Part shown: positions 47,661 to 56,033 of the stretch, piece by piece
Layout of the letters: each line of letters starts with the position of its first letter
How positions within the stretch are numbered: position 1 is the first letter of the stretch
Source of the DNA: Chloroflexota bacterium
GTDB taxonomy: Bacteria > Chloroflexota > Dehalococcoidia > Lucifugimonadales > UBA3495
Direction of reading: 5' to 3'
Length of the DNA stretch: 58,234 bases
NCBI GenBank assembly: GCA_002721995.1
Contig: PBMF01000015.1
Location: 7,141 to 65,374 of the forward strand
Made by a program: the position numbers and the translations under genes
The notes under the pieces: model-generated
Database searches by the model: none
What the model was told of the DNA's origin: nothing
Seen by the model: only the letters and a program-made list of their open reading frames with translations

Positions 47661-48701
47661 CTAGTTGTCCTTGAACTTGAGCAGGATCTTTTCGCCGAAC
47701 ACGCGCAAGGACTGCTCCACCATCTTCTCGTCAATCTGCCCCACGTTGGGGTTGAGCAGCACGTTTCGGACTCCGGTGTCCCGCAGCTCTTCCAGCTTCC
47801 CAGCCACGGTTTCGGGGGTCCCGGCCAAGAAGGCATGCTCCACCTGTTCGCTATCCGGTATGGGTGCGCCGGGAGGGGCGGGCGGCACACCTCCGGGATT
47901 GAACCGCACCCTGGCATCCAGCAAGTGGGCCTTGAACCGGGCCAGGCCCTGCTCGGCGACTTCAATCCCCTGCTCGTCACTGTCGCAGACGAAGAGTGCC
48001 CGCTGGGCCCAGGTCTTGTCCAGGGTGTCCTCGATCTGGGCCTCGGTCAGCCCTGAATTGTTCAGAGCTTCCCGGTAGAGACCGAAGCGCCGGCGCAGGG
48101 TGTCGATGGTCTGGACACCGATCAGCACGGGACGTCCTGCCTTGCCCATGGCCACCATGGACTCCTCGGATATGCAGGCCCGCACGATGGGCGGATGGGG
48201 CTTCTGGTAGGGCTGGGGGCGCAGGCCGGGGAAGGACAGGTCCCAAAACTTGCCCTTGTGCACCACGTCGGCGCCGGTCCAGGCCTTAACCAACAGGTCT
48301 TCGGCCTCATCCAGCATCTCCCGGCCCCGTTCCAGGGTGATGCCGTAGCCGATGTACTCATACTCGTTGTAGGCCGAGCCCCGGCCGGTGCCGACGATGA
48401 GTCTGCCGTTGCTCAGGTTGTCCAACAGGGATGTTTGGACGGCCAGCCGCACCGGATGGTGCAGGGCCATCTCCACCACCGCGAAGCCGATGAGCACCCG
48501 CTTGGTGCGGGCCGCCACCGCGGCCCCAAAGACGACCGGGTCGGCGTAGGCCACCGCGCCATCGAAGTGGTGCTCGGTCAACCAGACGGCGTCGAAACCG
48601 ACTTCTTCGGCCAGTTCTATCTCGCGGAGGGTTTGTCCGATTACCTGGTGGTCCTTTTCCTGGTCGGCGCTGATCGAGAAAACGAAGCTGCCGAAACGCA
48701 T
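47661..48701 (-). CDS. LLM-class flavin-dependent oxidoreductase
   Basis: GFDAVWLTEHHF, HHPVRLA, GRLIVGTGRG, PYQKPHPP. Confidence 0.92.
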   Translation of the reverse strand: MRFGSFVFSISADQEKDHQVIGQTLREIELAEEVGFDAVWLTEHHFDGAVAYADPVVFGAAVAARTKRVLIGFAVVEMALHHPVRLAVQTSLLDNLSNGRLIVGTGRGSAYNEYEYIGYGITLERGREMLDEAEDLLVKAWTGADVVHKGKFWDLSFPGLRPQPYQKPHPPIVRACISEESMVAMGKAGRPVLIGVQTIDTLRRRFGLYREALNNSGLTEAQIEDTLDKTWAQRALFVCDSDEQGIEVAEQGLARFKAHLLDARVRFNPGGVPPAPPGAPIPDSEQVEHAFLAGTPETVAGKLEELRDTGVRNVLLNPNVGQIDEKMVEQSLRVFGEKILLKFKDN

Positions 48702-48789
48702 AGCTACTCCTCATGTGGCCTGAATGGATGCAACCGAGGCCGACGGCATTATCGCACACCGGCAGGTCCAGAGCATACGAAAAGTGGCG

Positions 48790-50679
48790 CTAGTCTCCCA
48801 GGTTGAGGACGAACTTCCGGTTGGAGACGCCGCGCTGGAGCAGGGCTTCCCTGGCGTCGACTTCCGGAATCATCTGGTTGGCCCTGACCCGGTAGGTATC
48901 GTCCCGGGTCTCGGCGTGCTGAAACTCCAGGTTCAACCATTCGACGATGAGGTTGAAGTATTCTGCCGCTTCTTGGTGGAGGTCCAGCGCGTCTTCCGGT
49001 GGGGAGATCTGTTGGAATCCGGTCACCAGGTCCTCGGCGGAGCGGACCAGGGCCAGTCGGCTGATCGACGACTCCCCGGCTGTCATGGGTACGGAGATGT
49101 CCTGGGAGCGCTGCTGTAACAGGGCGTCTTTATCCGCCAACAGAAGGTCAAGTCCTGATAGATAATCGGAGACCGTGAGTCTGGAAGAGTCTTCCCAGCC
49201 TTCGAGCCAGCGGACGAACTGGGTCTCAAAAACGGCGAGTGTTAGACCGGTGACAGATTCAATGGCTTGGGACAGGGTTAAACCCCGACCAATATCCTCC
49301 ACAACGCTTACCCCGGACAGCGAGCCGTAAGTCTCGTTCAGAAAGCGTATGGCCATGTAGCTCTGGTTGTACTGCAGGGAAATCTCGTTCTGGTCGGTGC
49401 GTGCGTTCCAATCTGACTGGTCATCGAGGGTGTTCAGGCTGAACAGACCGCCCGCCTGGGCCGCATCCCGCGCGGCATCGGCGGCCCGATAGACCCGGAG
49501 TTTGGTGGCGTCGGCCCGGCTCCCAGAGAGGGAAACATCGTATTCGTAGTAGCGGGAGAGACCTTCGGTAAGCCAGGCGGCCAGGTCCCGGCCGTTGGCC
49601 AGTTCGTCGGAGACCATGTGGACATATTCGTGGGTCAACAACCGCTCCGCCTCGGTAGTCAGGAAATCGGTGCGCATGTAGATTCCGGGTCTGGCCCCGA
49701 ATCCCTTGTAGTAGCCGTCCTCAAAACCCAGGTCCACTCCGGTCGCCGAGGCCACCTGTTCCATGATCTCCCGGTTGGCCATCAGATACAGATCGGGGAG
49801 CTGGGCCACCGTGGCGCCGGTCCGGTCTTCCATCAGGAGCGCGGTGGTGTTGAGCTGCTGCTGGAGGTCAACCATCAGGGCAAGCGGCACGGAGCTGGAG
49901 TAGTATGTCGTCGGACCGGACCCAGTGTGCCTGGTCATCTGCGCCTCAATGGTAATGGGTTCCTGACCGCTCAATTGGAGCTCGTTCATGGTGTATTCGA
50001 TTCCGGCGGCGGAGCCGTCCAGGTCCAGGTCCACGGTCCATGTTCCAGCCTCGTCATTGATGCCGTACCGTTTCCATTCCAGCTGACCCGACTCCGTGGG
50101 GTAGAGGGTGGCTGATGTCGATTTGACGCCAGATGAGTCCACCAAGTTCACATCGTCGTCGGTAATCCAGGGCGATGGCACTCCGTCGGGCCCGGAGATG
50201 GTGATGGTGACCTTTCTCCAGGGGGTAAGCCCGCTGAGCCCAAATGATACATCCCGGCCCGAGAATGCTATCTCGGGGGTCACCGTCATTAAGATTCCAC
50301 CGCCCAGGTCCAGTTGGGCTGTGCCGGCCGGAACGGGAGTTGGCGTTGGGGTGGGCTGGGGAGTGGCCGTCGGCGCCGGTGTTGGAGTCGGAGTCGGGGT
50401 CGGTGTGCTCGTCGGCTCCGGAGTGGGTGTGGGCGTTGGCGGCAGCGGGGTGGCCGTCGGGGTTGGAATGGCGGTGGCGGTAGGCTCCGGCGTTTCGGTC
50501 GCCACGGCCTGGGTGGGTGCCGGTGTAGCTGGGGGTGTCTGGGTAGCGGTCGCCGTCAGCGAAGCCAGGGCCTCGGGCGGCGGGGTGGCCGCGGGCGTGT
50601 CCGGGTCCGCCGTCTGGGTGCAGGCCGCCAGGGCAAGCAACAGAGAGGCGAACAGAAGCAGGGCTGTGGCCAGCTTCAA
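48790..50679 (-). CDS. Lipoprotein with Pro/Thr linker and peptidase MA-like (gluzincin) domain
   Basis: Lipobox LAAC, long (PT)n tract, LTHEYVH..WLTEGLSRY, YNQSYMAIRFL. Confidence 0.8.
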   Translation of the reverse strand: MKLATALLLFASLLLALAACTQTADPDTPAATPPPEALASLTATATQTPPATPAPTQAVATETPEPTATAIPTPTATPLPPTPTPTPEPTSTPTPTPTPTPAPTATPQPTPTPTPVPAGTAQLDLGGGILMTVTPEIAFSGRDVSFGLSGLTPWRKVTITISGPDGVPSPWITDDDVNLVDSSGVKSTSATLYPTESGQLEWKRYGINDEAGTWTVDLDLDGSAAGIEYTMNELQLSGQEPITIEAQMTRHTGSGPTTYYSSSVPLALMVDLQQQLNTTALLMEDRTGATVAQLPDLYLMANREIMEQVASATGVDLGFEDGYYKGFGARPGIYMRTDFLTTEAERLLTHEYVHMVSDELANGRDLAAWLTEGLSRYYEYDVSLSGSRADATKLRVYRAADAARDAAQAGGLFSLNTLDDQSDWNARTDQNEISLQYNQSYMAIRFLNETYGSLSGVSVVEDIGRGLTLSQAIESVTGLTLAVFETQFVRWLEGWEDSSRLTVSDYLSGLDLLLADKDALLQQRSQDISVPMTAGESSISRLALVRSAEDLVTGFQQISPPEDALDLHQEAAEYFNLIVEWLNLEFQHAETRDDTYRVRANQMIPEVDAREALLQRGVSNRKFVLNLGD

Positions 50680-50883
50680 AGTATGTTCACCGCAGCTTGC
50701 AGGTTGGGGCCTGGAGTACGGGTGTTTGGCATGGGAAATACAAAGCTAGTCTGTCATAGGGGATTTTTTTAGGGCAAGCACGCCCACGGGCCGGATTCTC
50801 GTGTTAGAATTTGCTTGAAATTTTCCGGGCCTGATTCCTGTTTCATGAATGACTGGCCCCGGCTAATTCAAGTGGAGGATGCC

Positions 50884-51645
50884 ATGAACGTCCACGTTTA
50901 CACGCAACCTGGTTGATTCAGCTGCCGGACGGTGGAAGAATTTCTGAAGTCCAACGGTGTTCAGTATGAACACCACAACGTACTGGAAGACAAACAGGCC
51001 CTTGAGGACCTGCGCGGCCGGGGCATCAAGGCCCTGCCCGTAACAATCATTGATGACAGCGAAGTCATCATCGGCTACTTCCCGAAAAAGCTGATCCCCG
51101 CTTTGAAGCTGGACGTACAGGTCGATCTGTCGGGCAAGACTGCCTGGCTGGCCGATAAGTACGGCAAGATCCTAGACGCTGCGGTCCGGACCACGTCCCA
51201 GTTCACCCAGGAGCAGCTGGACGCCCTGGTGCCCTGGCGCCCCTGGAGTCTTCGGGACACCGTGCTCCACATCATGTCATTCCCCGAGGTGGCCTATCTC
51301 AGCCACAAGGTGGGCAGCATGAGCCAGGAGGACATGCGGGCCTCGGACGATCGGCTGAAGCCGGTGCACACCGCCGGGCAGATGGCCGAGTACGGCTCCA
51401 AGGTACGCGGCGACATCGTCGCGTTCCTGAACAGTGGCAACAACGAGACCTTCGACCGGGAGGTCCCCGCACACTACGGCGGGGAGGTCACGGTGCTGGA
51501 GCTGTTGAACATCATCCTCAGTCACAGCACCCACCATCTGAAACAGGTCTACCATTATATGCAGACCGACCTGGGCTTGATCCTGGATAACCCGGCCACA
51601 GAGGAAGACCTGGAAGGGATCCAGACTCCGGAAGCCCTGTTCTAA
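50884..51645 (+). CDS. Glutaredoxin(UxxC)-DinB fusion selenoprotein, 253 aa
   Basis: GGAGG SD, ATG 50884: MNVHVYTQPG-TGA-FSCRTVEEFL..KALPVTII..IIGY in frame with the tracked ORF 50932; TGA at 50914-50916; C-terminal DinB-like RDTVLH..HSTHHLKQ. Confidence 0.87.
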
Positions 51646-51762
51646 GTCTCCGGTTGCCGGATATTCCGGCCAAAAAAGGGAACCAAGTCCGTTCGCGGCG
51701 TGACCTCCACACCGCGAACGGACTGTATTTTTAGCAGCAATTTCATGAGTATGGGAGGGAAC

Positions 51763-53310
51763 ATGAAATACGACTATATAATCCTGGGCGCCGGCTCCGC
51801 CGGTTCCATCGTCGCCACCAGGCTTTCCGAAGACCCCACCAAGAACATCCTGCTCTTGGAAGCGGGTCCCGACTATCCAGACTTCGACCACCTGCCCGAG
51901 GAGGTGAAGTTCGGCTACGCCACCGAGATCGACATAATGGTCAGCGACCATAACTGGCAGTTCATCGGCAAGGCCACCGAGACCTCTCCGGAGATGCTGG
52001 TGCCCCGGGGCAAAGTTACCGGCGGTTCCAGCGCCATCAACGGCCAGGTCTTCCTGCGGGGAGTTCCCGAGGACTATGACTCATGGGCCGCCATGGGCAA
52101 CGACGAATGGCGGTTCCAGGACTGTCTGCCCTATTTCCGGAAGATAGAGACCGACACCGACTACCAGGACGACTTCCACGGTCCGGACGGTCCCATCGTC
52201 ATGCACCGGTTCGCCAGGGACACCTGGCACCCGGCCACCGAGGCCTTCTACCAAGCCTGCCGCTCCGCCGGCTATCCCGATTCACCGGACCACAACCACC
52301 CCGACTCCACAGGTGTGGGGCCGACGCCCCTGAACAACCCGGGCGGCATCCGCATGAGCACGGCCCTGGGTTACCTGGACCAGATCAGGCACCGGCTCAA
52401 TGTGACCATTCGGGCCAACTGCCACGTCCAACGCATCCTTTTCGAAGGCAAGCGGGCCGTGGGAGTGAAGGTGGAGAGCGGCGGCGAGACCTTTGACGTG
52501 GAAGGCTCCGAGATCATTCTCAGCTCCGGCGCCATCGGCTCACCCCAGACACTGATGCTGTCGGGCGTGGGTCCGGCCGACCACCTGAAAGAGTTCGGCA
52601 TACCCGTGGTGCACGATGCGCCAGGCGTTGGCCAGAACCTGCGCGATCATCCGCTGATCTTCGTCACCTGGCGCACCAAGCCGGAGGTCGCACTGGACGG
52701 CAACGCACCAAGGATGCAGGCGACGCTGCGCTACACCGCCGGCGGCTCGGACCTGCGGAACGATATGAAGGTCTCCATGCAGTCCTTTGCCACTGAGCGA
52801 ATTAACCGGGGCGGTGACCGTATGGTGCCCCTGGGAGTGCGCATGAGCAGCGGTATCCAACTTGCTGCCAGCGCGGGTCAACTGCGGCTCCAGTCCGCGG
52901 ACCCCAAGGAGCAGCCTTTCTTGGACTACCACCTTCTGGACGACCCCTTTGACCGGGAGCGCATGCGGGAGACTGTCCGCATCTGCGTGGCCCTGGGCGA
53001 AGACCCGGCCTTCAAGGACATCATTGCCGAGCGTATCGAGCCCACGGAAGCCGAACTTGCTTCCGATGAGGCGTTGGACGAATTCCTGCTGCGTGAGGTG
53101 ACCACCTCCCAGCACATCTCCTGCACCTGCAAGATGGGCCCCGCGGACGACCCCATGGCCGTGGTGGACCAGTACGGCAAGGTCCACGGCATGGAGGGCC
53201 TGCGGGTGGTGGACGCCTCCATCATGCCCGACTGCATCCGCGCCAACACCAACGTCACCACTATGATGATTGGTGAGCGCGTTGCCGACTGGATCAAGCA
53301 GGGGAAGTAG
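51763..53310 (+). CDS. GMC family oxidoreductase (BetA/MftG-like)
   Basis: Start MKYDYIILGAGSAG at 51763; PRGKVTGGSSAING, TSQHISCTCKMG, RANTN. Confidence 0.92.
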   Translation: MKYDYIILGAGSAGSIVATRLSEDPTKNILLLEAGPDYPDFDHLPEEVKFGYATEIDIMVSDHNWQFIGKATETSPEMLVPRGKVTGGSSAINGQVFLRGVPEDYDSWAAMGNDEWRFQDCLPYFRKIETDTDYQDDFHGPDGPIVMHRFARDTWHPATEAFYQACRSAGYPDSPDHNHPDSTGVGPTPLNNPGGIRMSTALGYLDQIRHRLNVTIRANCHVQRILFEGKRAVGVKVESGGETFDVEGSEIILSSGAIGSPQTLMLSGVGPADHLKEFGIPVVHDAPGVGQNLRDHPLIFVTWRTKPEVALDGNAPRMQATLRYTAGGSDLRNDMKVSMQSFATERINRGGDRMVPLGVRMSSGIQLAASAGQLRLQSADPKEQPFLDYHLLDDPFDRERMRETVRICVALGEDPAFKDIIAERIEPTEAELASDEALDEFLLREVTTSQHISCTCKMGPADDPMAVVDQYGKVHGMEGLRVVDASIMPDCIRANTNVTTMMIGERVADWIKQGK

Positions 53311-53380
53311 GACCAACCTGGTTGAACACGAATCCTCTCCCCCGCAAGGCGGGGGAGAGGACGATATTCTGAGGCAACAA

Positions 53381-53424
53381 GAAAAGGGGCGCTGTGAGTA
53401 CCACTCACAGCGCCCCTTTTCTTT
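53381..53424. terminator. Bidirectional terminator between convergent genes
   Basis: GAAAAGGGGCGCTGTGAGT-ACC-ACTCACAGCGCCCCTTTTC. Confidence 0.85.
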
Positions 53425-53441
53425 GCCCTTTCCCAGTCTGC

Positions 53442-54371
53442 TTAGAAGACAGCCAGGGGGTTGGTGGGGGAGCCGGTGGCGTTCTTGAACCGCAGTGGGG
53501 CGACTACGAACATGAATTCGTAGCGGTTCAGGCGCTCGCAGACGGCGGCCAGCTCTTCGCAGTTGCCGGCGTCAATGAGCCACAGGCCCATGCCGACGAT
53601 ACCCACCCGGTGGACGGGTAGGCCGATGCCGGGGTAGCCGCTGGGTTCCACGTCCTGGGAGGCGTCCCCGCCCACCACAGAGATTCCCCGTTCCTTCAGC
53701 CAGGGCAGGGTCTCGGCGTGGAGTCCGGGCCGGCCCGATTCGGGCGCTCCCTTGGCCAGGCGGCGCTTGTACCAGCCCAGCCGGAGCATCAGGGCGTCTC
53801 CTTCCTCCAGGCGCACACCCTGGGCCTTCTCGGCCGCTTCTAGGTCCTCGGTGAAGACGCCTTCGCCGGCCTCCAACCACTCGACCCCGCGCACCTTGGT
53901 GATGTCCAGCATGACGCCCCGGGTGATGATGCCGTTCTGGGCGGTGTCAATGTTCAGCACAGTGGCCTTGGACTCGCTGCCCACCAATGAAGCGTCCTTG
54001 CCGTTGTACAGCTTGCCGTTCCAGGTCTGGTGGCAGAGGGCGTCCAGATGGGTGATGGTCAGACCGTGGTAAGAGAACCCCAAGAAGTCGGAGGTTCCCC
54101 CGCCGCCCTCGGCCGGCACGGTGTCGCCGGCGCGGATCATGTAGTGCAGGGGCGGGATGGTTGTGACATCCGCGGCGATCTCGGGCTCAACCAGCCGCGA
54201 ACAGGTGACGCTTATGCCCTCTTTCACCAGGGCGGCGGCCTGGGCGCGTTTGGCGTCGGTTATCAGGTTCAGGGTGCCAAGTTGGTCGTCGTCACCCCAG
54301 CGTCCCCAGTTGCTGAGTGAGTCCATCCAACCGATTACCTGTTCTTCCGTGGGTACCTGTCTGCTGGCCAT
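53442..54371 (-). CDS. Cyclase family protein (kynurenine formamidase-like)
   Basis: NWGRWGDDDQLGTLN, HGLTITHLDALCH, GSPTNPLAVF. Confidence 0.9.
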   Translation of the reverse strand: MASRQVPTEEQVIGWMDSLSNWGRWGDDDQLGTLNLITDAKRAQAAALVKEGISVTCSRLVEPEIAADVTTIPPLHYMIRAGDTVPAEGGGGTSDFLGFSYHGLTITHLDALCHQTWNGKLYNGKDASLVGSESKATVLNIDTAQNGIITRGVMLDITKVRGVEWLEAGEGVFTEDLEAAEKAQGVRLEEGDALMLRLGWYKRRLAKGAPESGRPGLHAETLPWLKERGISVVGGDASQDVEPSGYPGIGLPVHRVGIVGMGLWLIDAGNCEELAAVCERLNRYEFMFVVAPLRFKNATGSPTNPLAVF

Positions 54372-54395
54372 GGTCCTCTCCTTCCTTTTATTCGT

Positions 54396-56033
54396 TTACT
54401 CGGTGGTGAGCCCGGTGATGGCGCCGTCCACGAACAGGATCTCGATGGTCCGCGAGACGGCTTCTTCCAGTTGGGCGTGGGCTGACTGGTCCAGGTGTTG
54501 GCCCAGGCTATCGACTATGTCGGCGACGGATTTCTGGCCGTCAACGGCGGTGATGACCGCGGCAACGATGGGGCTGCAGGGCGTGCCCTCGGGCTGGGAG
54601 ATGGTGTTCAGCACATGGCCCCGCACGAACTCGCCTTCAGCCAAAACCGGCTTTTCCTCGACTTTGACGCCCTCTGCTATCTGGGGGATGGCGTTCAGTA
54701 GTTGGTTCCGTTGGGGGTCTCCGGCCAGGGCCGCCAGCCATTCGGTACGGGCCCGGCGCTCGGTCTCCACAGCGCGGATGCTCTCGGTAAACTCCTCCGG
54801 AGCGTGTCCCCGCTCCAGGACCACCCGCTCGTAGCCCCGGGGCGGCTGACCGGCGACGGCCTGGATGAAGCTCTCCCGGGGGGAATAGTGGCTGGCATTG
54901 GTGATGCGCCGGGCCTCCCAGAAGTAGGACTCGGCGCTGAGGTTGCTGGAGTAGAACAGCCGGGCCATCTCCCGGAACTGGTTGTACTCCTTCAAGTACA
55001 GCTCCTGATAGACCTGGCCGGCATCTTCTGCCAGGGAAGGGTCGTTCAATGCTGTGGTCACGTAGGCCGCAGCCAGCACTCCGGACATGAGGGCCAGGTG
55101 TACCCCCGAGGAGAAGAGGGGATCAACGAAACAGGCGGCGTCCCCGGCCAGTATGAAGCCGGGGCCGAACAGCTTTTCCGATGTGTAAGACCAGTCCAGC
55201 AGCACCGTCGGCTCAGAGTCCATCGCGGCCTTGGCCAGCATATTCTTAGTATGCGTGCTCTGGGACAGCTGGGACTCCAGGAATGCTTTGGCCCCTTCCT
55301 TCTGGATACCTTCTTGACCGATTTTGGAATCCACGACCGCACCCACGCTGGTCCGGCCCGTGTGCAGGGGGATGCTCCAGAGCCAGCCGTGCTGATAGGA
55401 CTCGATGAAGATGTTGTTCTGGTCGGGCTCGGGCAACGGGTCTCCGCCGGTGAAGTAGGCGTAGACCGCCAGGTTTTGGAAGAAGGGGTCCCATTGTTTG
55501 TATTCGAGATGCCTGGCCAGGAGCGTCGATTGGCCGGAGGCGTCCACAATGAACCGGCATTCGGCTTCGCCCTCAACACCGTCGGCGTTGGTGAACTCAA
55601 CGCCCACCGCTTCGCCGTCGTCGAAGATCACATCTGAAACGTGGGCGCCCTCCACCACCGTCACACCGGCGGCGCGGGCGTTGTCTAGGAGTATCTGGTC
55701 GAACTGGGGGCGCCACACCTGGTAGGAGTGGGGATAACGCTGGCTGGTCTCCTTGAAATACCAACTCCAGGGGCTAGAGCCGCTGCCCCAGACCATGGTC
55801 GCGCCGGGCTTGGGGAGAAAACCTGCCTCTTCCACGGCCGGAAGGACTCCAAGTTCTTCCAGTATGGGGATGGAGGCGGGGAGGAGGGATTCTCCAACAT
55901 GGTCGCGGGGGAAGTTTTCCCTTTCGAGGACGGTCACCTGCCAGCCCTTGCGGGCCAGCATGGTCGCGGCGGCGCTGCCGGCGGGCCCTCCGCCAATGAC
56001 GACCACGTCCGCGCTAAGGTCGGTAACATTCAT
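54396..56033 (-). CDS. Flavin-dependent halogenase (PltA/CndH-like) with C-terminal winged-helix/PqqD-like extension
   Basis: GGGPAG, FPRDHVGESLLP, GFLPKPGA (catalytic Lys position), GWLWSIPL (WxWxIP), GDAACFVDPLFSSGVHLA. Confidence 0.82.
   Translation of the reverse strand: MNVTDLSADVVVIGGGPAGSAAATMLARKGWQVTVLERENFPRDHVGESLLPASIPILEELGVLPAVEEAGFLPKPGATMVWGSGSSPWSWYFKETSQRYPHSYQVWRPQFDQILLDNARAAGVTVVEGAHVSDVIFDDGEAVGVEFTNADGVEGEAECRFIVDASGQSTLLARHLEYKQWDPFFQNLAVYAYFTGGDPLPEPDQNNIFIESYQHGWLWSIPLHTGRTSVGAVVDSKIGQEGIQKEGAKAFLESQLSQSTHTKNMLAKAAMDSEPTVLLDWSYTSEKLFGPGFILAGDAACFVDPLFSSGVHLALMSGVLAAAYVTTALNDPSLAEDAGQVYQELYLKEYNQFREMARLFYSSNLSAESYFWEARRITNASHYSPRESFIQAVAGQPPRGYERVVLERGHAPEEFTESIRAVETERRARTEWLAALAGDPQRNQLLNAIPQIAEGVKVEEKPVLAEGEFVRGHVLNTISQPEGTPCSPIVAAVITAVDGQKSVADIVDSLGQHLDQSAHAQLEEAVSRTIEILFVDGAITGLTTE

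Follow-up and report, generated by a model that had tools for sequence, protein, structure and literature searches.

The window analysed here is a 58,234-nucleotide (nt) stretch of contig PBMF01000015.1 (positions 7,141 to 65,374 of the forward strand, assembly GCA_002721995.1) from a bacterium of the phylum Chloroflexota. At 50884-51645 it carries a gene that very probably encodes a selenoprotein, in which a redoxin containing selenocysteine (Sec) is fused to a DinB-like domain (Table 1). Translation from the ATG at 50884 to the TAA at 51643-51645, with the in-frame UGA read as Sec, gives a product with the N terminus MNVHVYTQPG-U-FSC. The initial annotation had pointed to the Shine-Dalgarno sequence, to this start codon and to YTQPG-UGA-FSC, with the UGA at the attacking position of a CxxC motif, and all of them were confirmed in the sequence; the motif TGGAGG[AG]TGCC lies upstream of the ATG in most of the 24 close relatives. 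The cis-Pro of ALP (P52), GY (G64-Y65), H129 and H214-S-T-H217-H218 were also found as it had claimed.

Table 1. Features of the Sec-redoxin/DinB locus (window coordinates)
Feature	Position	Strand	Basis
Predicted full selenoprotein open reading frame (ORF), 253 amino acids (aa), stop codon included in the span; Sec-redoxin and DinB_2 fusion	50884..51645	+	Translation, Pfam, homolog alignment, AlphaFold
Shine-Dalgarno sequence GGAGGA, 4 nt 5' of the ATG	50874..50879	+	Sequence inspection
UGA codon 11, putatively read as Sec, first position of the U-F-S-C redox motif	50914..50916	+	Conservation
Shortened 237-aa ORF with GTG start, reported by gene callers as 'DinB family protein'	50932..51645	+	
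Glutaredoxin/NrdH/YruB-like thioredoxin-fold domain, approximately residues 3-71, cis-Pro P52	50890..51096	+	PF00462, PDB, Foldseek
DinB_2/YfiT-like four-helix bundle, His triad H129/H214/H218, conserved C-terminal tail (G245, P249)	51142..51642	+	PF12867, PF05163
Proposed Sec insertion sequence (SECIS) hairpin: GGAC...GUCC outer stem, inner stem of 5 base pairs (bp), apical loop GAAU at 50938-50941	50927..50952	+	Folding
Second hairpin, GGUGUUCA-GUA-UGAACACC, perfect 8-bp stem, clade specific	50956..50974	+	Folding, alignment
Terminator-like hairpin, 13 + 3 bp, followed by GUAUUUUUAG (U-run), between the gene and the GMC oxidoreductase gene	51686..51734	+	z = -5.36

Under translation table 11, the 237-aa ORF starting at the GTG is the sole open frame of the gene. 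The same truncation prevails in public protein sets: among the best 120 of 992 homologs retrieved by a word-indexed protein search, 119 start after the TGA, with lengths of 201 to 238 aa. Where the source gives a name, these 120 proteins are called 'DinB family protein', and the organisms are assigned to SAR202, Dehalococcoidia or Chloroflexota.

To describe the conservation of the TGA, two sets of homologs were used, a close set formed by the window and 24 loci (one genome per species; 25 sequences in all) and a divergent set of 13 Chloroflexota homologs with 25 to 48% identity. TGA was present at codon 11 in 24 of the 24 species-level relatives (25/25 with the window) and at the first UxxC position in 13 of the 13 divergent homologs. 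The ten codons preceding it are in frame in the 24 relatives, encode M[ND]V[HQ]VYT[QN]PG and vary mostly synonymously (Thr ACG/ACA/ACC/ACT, Gln CAA/CAG, Tyr TAC/TAT). A sample of the class yielded matches in 11 of 401 genomes, nine of them with one TGA and the other two corresponding to short Grx-only genes, while a Cys-form query run against a sample of the phylum gave matches in 7 of 401 genomes, all seven with one TGA. The concern that the UGA might be confined to this one genome is therefore contradicted by the 25 close and 13 divergent sequences. As regards individual loci, the gene is cut by the contig end in the divergent locus L052, and in the relative L037 codon 22 is an additional in-frame TAG (L037:4064-4066, EEFL*SNG), which might be due to pseudogenisation, to an error of assembly or to another cause.

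Cysteine occupies the same position in more distant homologs. An exhaustive HMMER search rendered 626 representatives at E <= 0.001, and the full-length Cys homologs (approximately 245 to 276 aa, 22 to 30% identity) contain QPGC[ST]SC, whose first Cys falls in the alignment column of U11. The alternation of Cys and UGA at codon 11 anticipated in the initial annotation was thus observed, with TGA in close and divergent homologs and Cys in distant full-length ones. When metagenomes were scanned with a profile built from Cys forms only, 584 of the 600 stretches retrieved as candidates proved to be relatives, a sample biased towards Cys forms because the search patterns contained Cys. Cys-form Atlas clusters bear the automatic name 'DinB superfamily/Glutaredoxin domain-containing protein', and their commonest phylum is Pseudomonadota. 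In a quick, unrooted maximum-likelihood tree, which had SH-aLRT support only and comprised 18 Sec together with 87 Cys forms, the half containing the window held 13 Sec forms and one long-branch Cys form, and the other half 86 Cys forms and five Sec forms. At least three Sec/Cys switches are needed on this tree, and at least two are forced by well-supported branches.

The TGA itself was unchanged in the sequencing data. In three RNA libraries, all from a single study, contigs extend over positions 50871-51550, 50873-50930, 50901-51598 and 50901-51256, and a DNA run covers the whole stretch; no variant was observed at 50914-50916 in the three RNA-library runs or in the DNA run, which contradicts the possibility that raw reads would show TGC or TGT. 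None of the RNA-library contigs covers the upstream region 50750-50851. These contigs demonstrate presence in RNA libraries, which is short of proof of transcription.

The two halves of the protein were each assigned to a known fold. Residues 3 to 59 matched Pfam Glutaredoxin (PF00462) with 38.0 bits (gathering threshold, 22.9), and residues 103 to 222 matched DinB_2 (PF12867) with 39.1 bits (gathering threshold, 24.8); PF05163 was also matched. All the NCBIfam redoxin families remained below their cut-offs (YruB, 57 versus 88.55; NrdH, 48.7 versus 85.75; Uxx_star, 36.5 versus 66), and the protein also fell below the NCBIfam Grx cut-offs. AlphaFold modelling on a 41-row alignment gave a predicted local distance difference test score (pLDDT) of 96.3 and a predicted template modelling score (pTM) of 0.92. 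The N-terminal domain matched PDB profiles of 7c10 (3e-21), 3zij and 1h75, and Foldseek superposed it on 1h75, 7c10, 7c12, 3zij, 3zit and 4fiw with target-normalised template modelling (TM) scores of 0.84 to 0.95, in line with a resemblance to cGrx1, BC3987 and NrdH. For its part, the C-terminal domain matched 2p1a, YfiT (1rxq), DR0053 (6iz2), YjoA (3dka), the isomerase 2nsf and 3gor, its SHSTHH segment being aligned with D/EHEIHH of 3gor and 3dka; a single-sequence PDB search of this domain gave weak matches only. Both the Grx and the DinB folds were thus recovered by the structural comparison, and no solved chain found in it spans the two domains. In the family alignment, residues P52, H129 and H218 do not vary, at least 90% of the rows share R119, G199, H214, Q221, G245 and P249, and the DinB domain contains no conserved Cys.

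A candidate SECIS hairpin follows the UGA. Numbering from the U of the UGA as nt 1, GGAC occupies nt 14 to 17, GUCC nt 36 to 39 and the GAAU loop nt 25 to 28, which places the loop some 22 nt beyond the UGA. In bacterial SECIS elements, 16 to 37 nt separate the UGA from the apical loop, and the window hairpin falls within the spacing expected of a selenoprotein stem-loop, with weak single-sequence z-scores. Within the close set, 22 of the 25 sequences form a hairpin of -8 kcal/mol or lower with its loop within nt 22 to 31, and the synonymous sites around it are nearly frozen (CCT-GGT-TGA-TTC; CGG in 23/25; TCC in 23/23 Ser codons), with codon 39 varying freely.

The divergent Sec forms provide a more regular picture. 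A GAAAG-N3-7-CUUUC motif was found at nt 20 to 36 in 12 of the 13, in the form CGAAAG-N5-CUUUCG, versus 0 of 58 Cys forms, and this hairpin occupies the same position as that at 50927-50952 in the window. All 72 cells of the stem are paired, and the closing pair is C:G in ten sequences and U:A in two, that is, one compensatory pair; only 2 of 500 shuffles equalled this result. The stem is built from codons that are infrequent elsewhere in the same genes, since CTT, AAA and TCG were used in 12/12, 12/12 and 10/12 cases, compared to 24/271, 16/47 and 21/95 of their codon families, respectively, in the rest of the coding sequence. It is kept despite differences in the encoded peptide (TKEFLS, TKAWLS, TKALLS, TKEYLS). 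For the post-UGA region, Sec forms had a median z-score of -1.10 and Cys forms one of +0.06. A hairpin of the same type, GUGAAAG-N5-CUUUCAC, is present in the gene for a stand-alone redoxin that belongs to the divergent set, and this SECIS type would therefore be common to free and fused redoxins in the phylum. That gene (L063, from G423:C38, complementary strand) encodes a 78-aa UxxC Sec-redoxin, …VVVYAQSG-U-MFC…, with its UGA at L063:1654-1656.

The stem-loop drawn in the initial annotation, ATTC-AG-CTGCC-GGAC-GGTGG-AA-GAAT, can indeed be drawn at 50916-50941, but it is not conserved as a SECIS. Its inner two pairs are unpaired in 18 and 15 of the 25 close sequences, the observed pairing was reached in 181 of 500 shuffles, and the structure is absent from the divergent homologs. 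The associated worry that the loop was too near the UGA is removed by the conserved hairpin located further downstream. Directly 3' of the proposed SECIS lies the second hairpin of Table 1, which is retained within the close clade and which most divergent homologs lack. A change from U:A to U:G at alignment columns 53:63 (10 versus 15 sequences) keeps its pairing.

Regarding the Sec machinery, selA (562.6 bits), selB (343.3 bits) and selD (371.5 bits) were all detected above their cut-offs in the genome. selD, located at G000:C48:12067-12984 (L019:1501-2418), is itself a selenoprotein gene encoding HCAG-U-AAK (MASSKVRLTELSHCAG-U-AAKL), with a hairpin at nt 23 to 41 after its own in-frame UGA. 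selA was also above cut-off in 10 of 10 divergent carriers. As for the tRNA, aragorn predicted tRNA-SeC in four of six loci of same-genus relatives, and Rfam gave canonical matches of 64.5 to 71 bits in three of four loci. The search for the four components suggested by the initial annotation was therefore successful for the three genes, but for tRNA-Sec the window's own assembly offered only a divergent copy below the cut-off (see below), canonical copies being found in the same-genus relatives. The top Rfam tRNA-Sec match in the genome, with 47.2 bits, turned out to be tRNA-Ser(UGA), and no tRNA was found in the flanks of selA, selB and selD. In same-genus relatives the 3' ~69 nt of tRNA-Sec are repeated two to six times per genome (L153-L161; G000:C12:100-195, L006), and the copies in L153, L154 and G000 are without a proper 5' half, a pattern suggestive of an attachment-site duplication by elements integrating into selC.

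Several results weigh against Sec recoding at this locus. The single-sequence fold z-scores are unremarkable (-0.6 to -1.1), as is that of the genome's own selD (approximately -0.6). A hairpin of -8 kcal/mol or lower with its loop at nt 22 to 31 occurs in 33 of 38 Sec forms and also in 34 of 58 Cys forms; raw energy separates the two only moderately, the sequence for the KEFL peptide being in itself partly self-complementary. The GAAAG/CUUUC motif was found in 0 of the 25 window-clade sequences. RNAalifold detected no compensatory pairs in these 25 sequences and column-wise covariation was nil, because they are too alike and the inner stem shifts register; covariation is thus represented by the single compensatory pair of the divergent forms but is lacking in the close clade. 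Aragorn identified 38 tRNAs and no tRNA-Sec in the window's own assembly, which is 88% complete. The only candidate with a UCA anticodon (C12:106-190) scored 40.6 bits versus a cut-off of 47, and has a divergent 5' part beside a contig end, only its 3' ~69 nt matching the relatives. The co-occurrence of selA with the carriers says little, because 298 of 401 genomes of the class have selA (a tally that includes the unpublished G244). Finally, the database proteins P0117, P0134, P0186 and P0203 show R, W, W and S, respectively, at the Sec position, and they could be true substitutions one base from TGA or gene calls under another code.

Taking both sides into account, comparative evidence makes it very likely that the gene is a real selenoprotein gene. 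According to this reading, translation would start at the ATG at 50884, and the UGA at 50914-50916 would be decoded as Sec by SelB and tRNA-Sec under the direction of the in-ORF hairpin at 50927-50952. The joint claim is held with equally high confidence on the basis of sequence comparison and modelling, namely, a predicted 253-residue Sec product in which the U11-F-S-C14 redoxin would be packed rigidly on a DinB/YfiT His-triad bundle. The proposal of a UxxC Sec glutaredoxin-like domain fused to a DinB-like His-triad domain and hidden from annotation thus finds strong comparative support. As a whole, recoding, fusion and the mechanism proposed below are, with good confidence, the best explanation of the locus.

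The catalytic role itself is put forward tentatively. The metal site formed by the His triad would bind and polarise the substrate, an electrophile or an oxidised compound, and the U11 selenolate would attack it in place of the low-molecular-weight thiol of stand-alone DinB transferases. C14 would then resolve the adduct to a selenenylsulfide, to be re-reduced by thioredoxin reductase or thioredoxin; a thioredoxin reductase gene is present in the genome. The protein might accordingly be a self-contained reductase or transferase with no need of a low-molecular-weight thiol, and not a glutathione-type transferase. This built-in selenolate chemistry is possible, though far from assured. Somewhat more doubtful is its extension to a new design, a self-sufficient detoxifying or reducing enzyme that would combine a DinB metal site with a protein-borne U11 selenolate, C14 as the resolving residue and recycling by thioredoxin reductase. 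Two observations count against the mechanism. The flanks of 32 Cys-form and 10 Sec loci contained no common partner pointing to a substrate, and a glutathione-type partner is possible because cGrx1 (7c10), the nearest solved redoxin, is titled a glutaredoxin.

The latter observation also favours a different role, in which the DinB domain would use a free, possibly novel low-molecular-weight thiol, and the Sec-redoxin would recycle this thiol or strip its adducts. DinB_2 membership and the His triad fit such a role, and the DinB members already described act as bacillithiol, mycothiol or glutathione transferases (PMC6300522). However, the scores against the thiol-transferase equivalogs were far under the cut-offs (YfiT bacillithiol, 14.3 versus 160; mycothiol [MST], 13.5 versus 170), gshB and bshC were not found in the 88%-complete genome and mshC was detected only below cut-off. 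Besides, the DinB domain lacks a conserved Cys for the redoxin to reduce, and rigid packing of the two domains is predicted by the model (the pTM given above). We consider this alternative, which corresponds to the inference made in the initial annotation, a minority option that may nevertheless hold.

The initial annotation had also suggested that the protein might work with the product of the downstream GMC oxidoreductase gene. The upstream neighbour is a peptidase-MA gene on the opposite strand, and the GMC gene, which starts at an ATG at 51763, is the downstream neighbour. As a broader observation, the region 47661-56033 encodes a luciferase-like monooxygenase, the peptidase MA, the GMC oxidoreductase, a putative cyclase and a tryptophan-halogenase-like flavoenzyme, in an order mostly kept across close relatives. 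A functional unit of the two proteins would agree with the fact that 20 of 24 close loci have a GMC gene downstream in the same orientation, but no such gene was found within 1.5 kb in any of 10 divergent Sec loci or among the 64 ORFs flanking 32 Cys-form loci, and the arrangement differs in four relatives (L036, L038, L041 and L042). Moreover, the GMC gene has its own Shine-Dalgarno sequence and start codon, and the terminator-like hairpin lies between the two genes; 0 of 200 shuffles folded as well as this hairpin, whose loop was too long for a consensus terminator scan to detect it. The link thus reduces to synteny within the close clade, and a functional unit is unlikely.

Turning to the recoding itself, the UGA could be a true stop, in which case the product would be the 237-aa protein and the ten upstream codons would constitute a short leader ORF. 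This is how 119 of the best 120 homologs are annotated, and it would agree with the lack of a complete tRNA-Sec in the window's assembly and with the unremarkable single-sequence z-scores. Nonetheless, a conserved and otherwise complete Grx fold would be left in such a product without strand 1 and without any of the redox motif, and its GTG has no Shine-Dalgarno motif upstream by sequence inspection. The upstream codons, for their part, are under protein-level selection and preceded by a conserved Shine-Dalgarno sequence, Cys homologs continue uninterrupted through codon 11, and the conserved hairpin is built from disfavoured codons. Termination at codon 11 is therefore highly improbable. Equally improbable is read-through with another amino acid, whether Trp, Cys, Gly or Arg, as a result of codon reassignment or of near-cognate suppression, for although the W, R or S entries mentioned above would suit it, the W entries may be gene calls under another genetic code, TGA behaves as a normal stop ending 244 of 892 long frames (at least 400 codons) in the genome, the aligned homolog residue is a catalytic Cys, the classic partner of Sec, the genome has the full set of selA, selB and selD, and the hairpin after the UGA is fixed in position.

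The selenoprotein reading can be placed beside systems already described. A UxxC Grx (PF00462) is included among the experimentally supported prokaryotic selenoproteins in a review table (PMC13188914), whose rows consulted here contain no DinB fusion, and Table 2 of the GOS metagenomic survey includes a 'Grx-like' UxxC family of 42 sequences (PMC2398784). The full-text literature search returned no paper that deals with a Grx-DinB protein, be it of the Sec or the Cys form, although survey supplements, which were outside the search, could hold the family; this agrees with the earlier remark that no characterised example was known. UxxC thioredoxin-fold selenoproteins and DinB transferases are thus each well known, and a selenoprotein joining both was not found described. 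The gene is common in SAR202, Dehalococcoidia and other Chloroflexota relatives, yet the public proteins nearly always lack the active-site motif. As a simple marker, the CGAAAG-N5-CUUUCG hairpin, fixed in position, could serve to retrieve genes of this kind, and stand-alone Sec-redoxins are flagged by it as well.

Selenoprotein Grx shares with the present protein the thioredoxin fold, Sec as first residue of UxxC, Cys homologs at that site and a SECIS within the ORF, and cGrx1 (7c10/7c12) is 38 to 40% identical to its N-domain. Selenoprotein Grx proteins are, however, small stand-alone redoxins, whereas the present protein adds a DinB domain of 170 residues. The DinB/YfiT superfamily is described as including bacillithiol S-transferases (PMC6300522), and its thiol S-transferases (BstA/YfiT, mycothiol) have in common with the C-domain the DinB_2 Pfam family, the four-helix bundle and a His triad with H-x3-H. 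These transferases are single-domain proteins that use a free low-molecular-weight thiol, in contrast to the covalently attached Sec-redoxin of the fusion. Mycothiol-dependent maleylpyruvate isomerase (2nsf) has a DinB-type N-domain that superposes on the C-domain (TMq 0.44, 146 columns), but identity is only 9%, its second domain is of another kind and its thiol cofactor is free.

Further counterparts are the Cys-form Grx-DinB fusions, which are widespread and for which no characterisation was found in the literature search. They share architecture, length, cis-Pro, His triad, R119 and the C-terminal G..P tail with the present protein, and differ in having Cys for Sec, in an identity of 22 to 30% and in the absence of the GAAAG/CUUUC hairpin (0/58). 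Canonical glutathione S-transferase (GST) presents an analogous domain order, a redoxin fold followed by a helical bundle. This is analogy and not membership, given that whole-length Foldseek comparison rendered TM scores of 0.24 to 0.32 with a root mean square deviation of 14 to 18 Å, and that the helical domain is here a DinB bundle with a predicted metal site. The fusion suggests the testable idea that DinB enzymes might work without a low-molecular-weight thiol. If true, SAR202 and other Chloroflexota would possess DinB chemistry independent of any low-molecular-weight thiol, and the protein would represent a convergent, selenium-based counterpart of the GST architecture.

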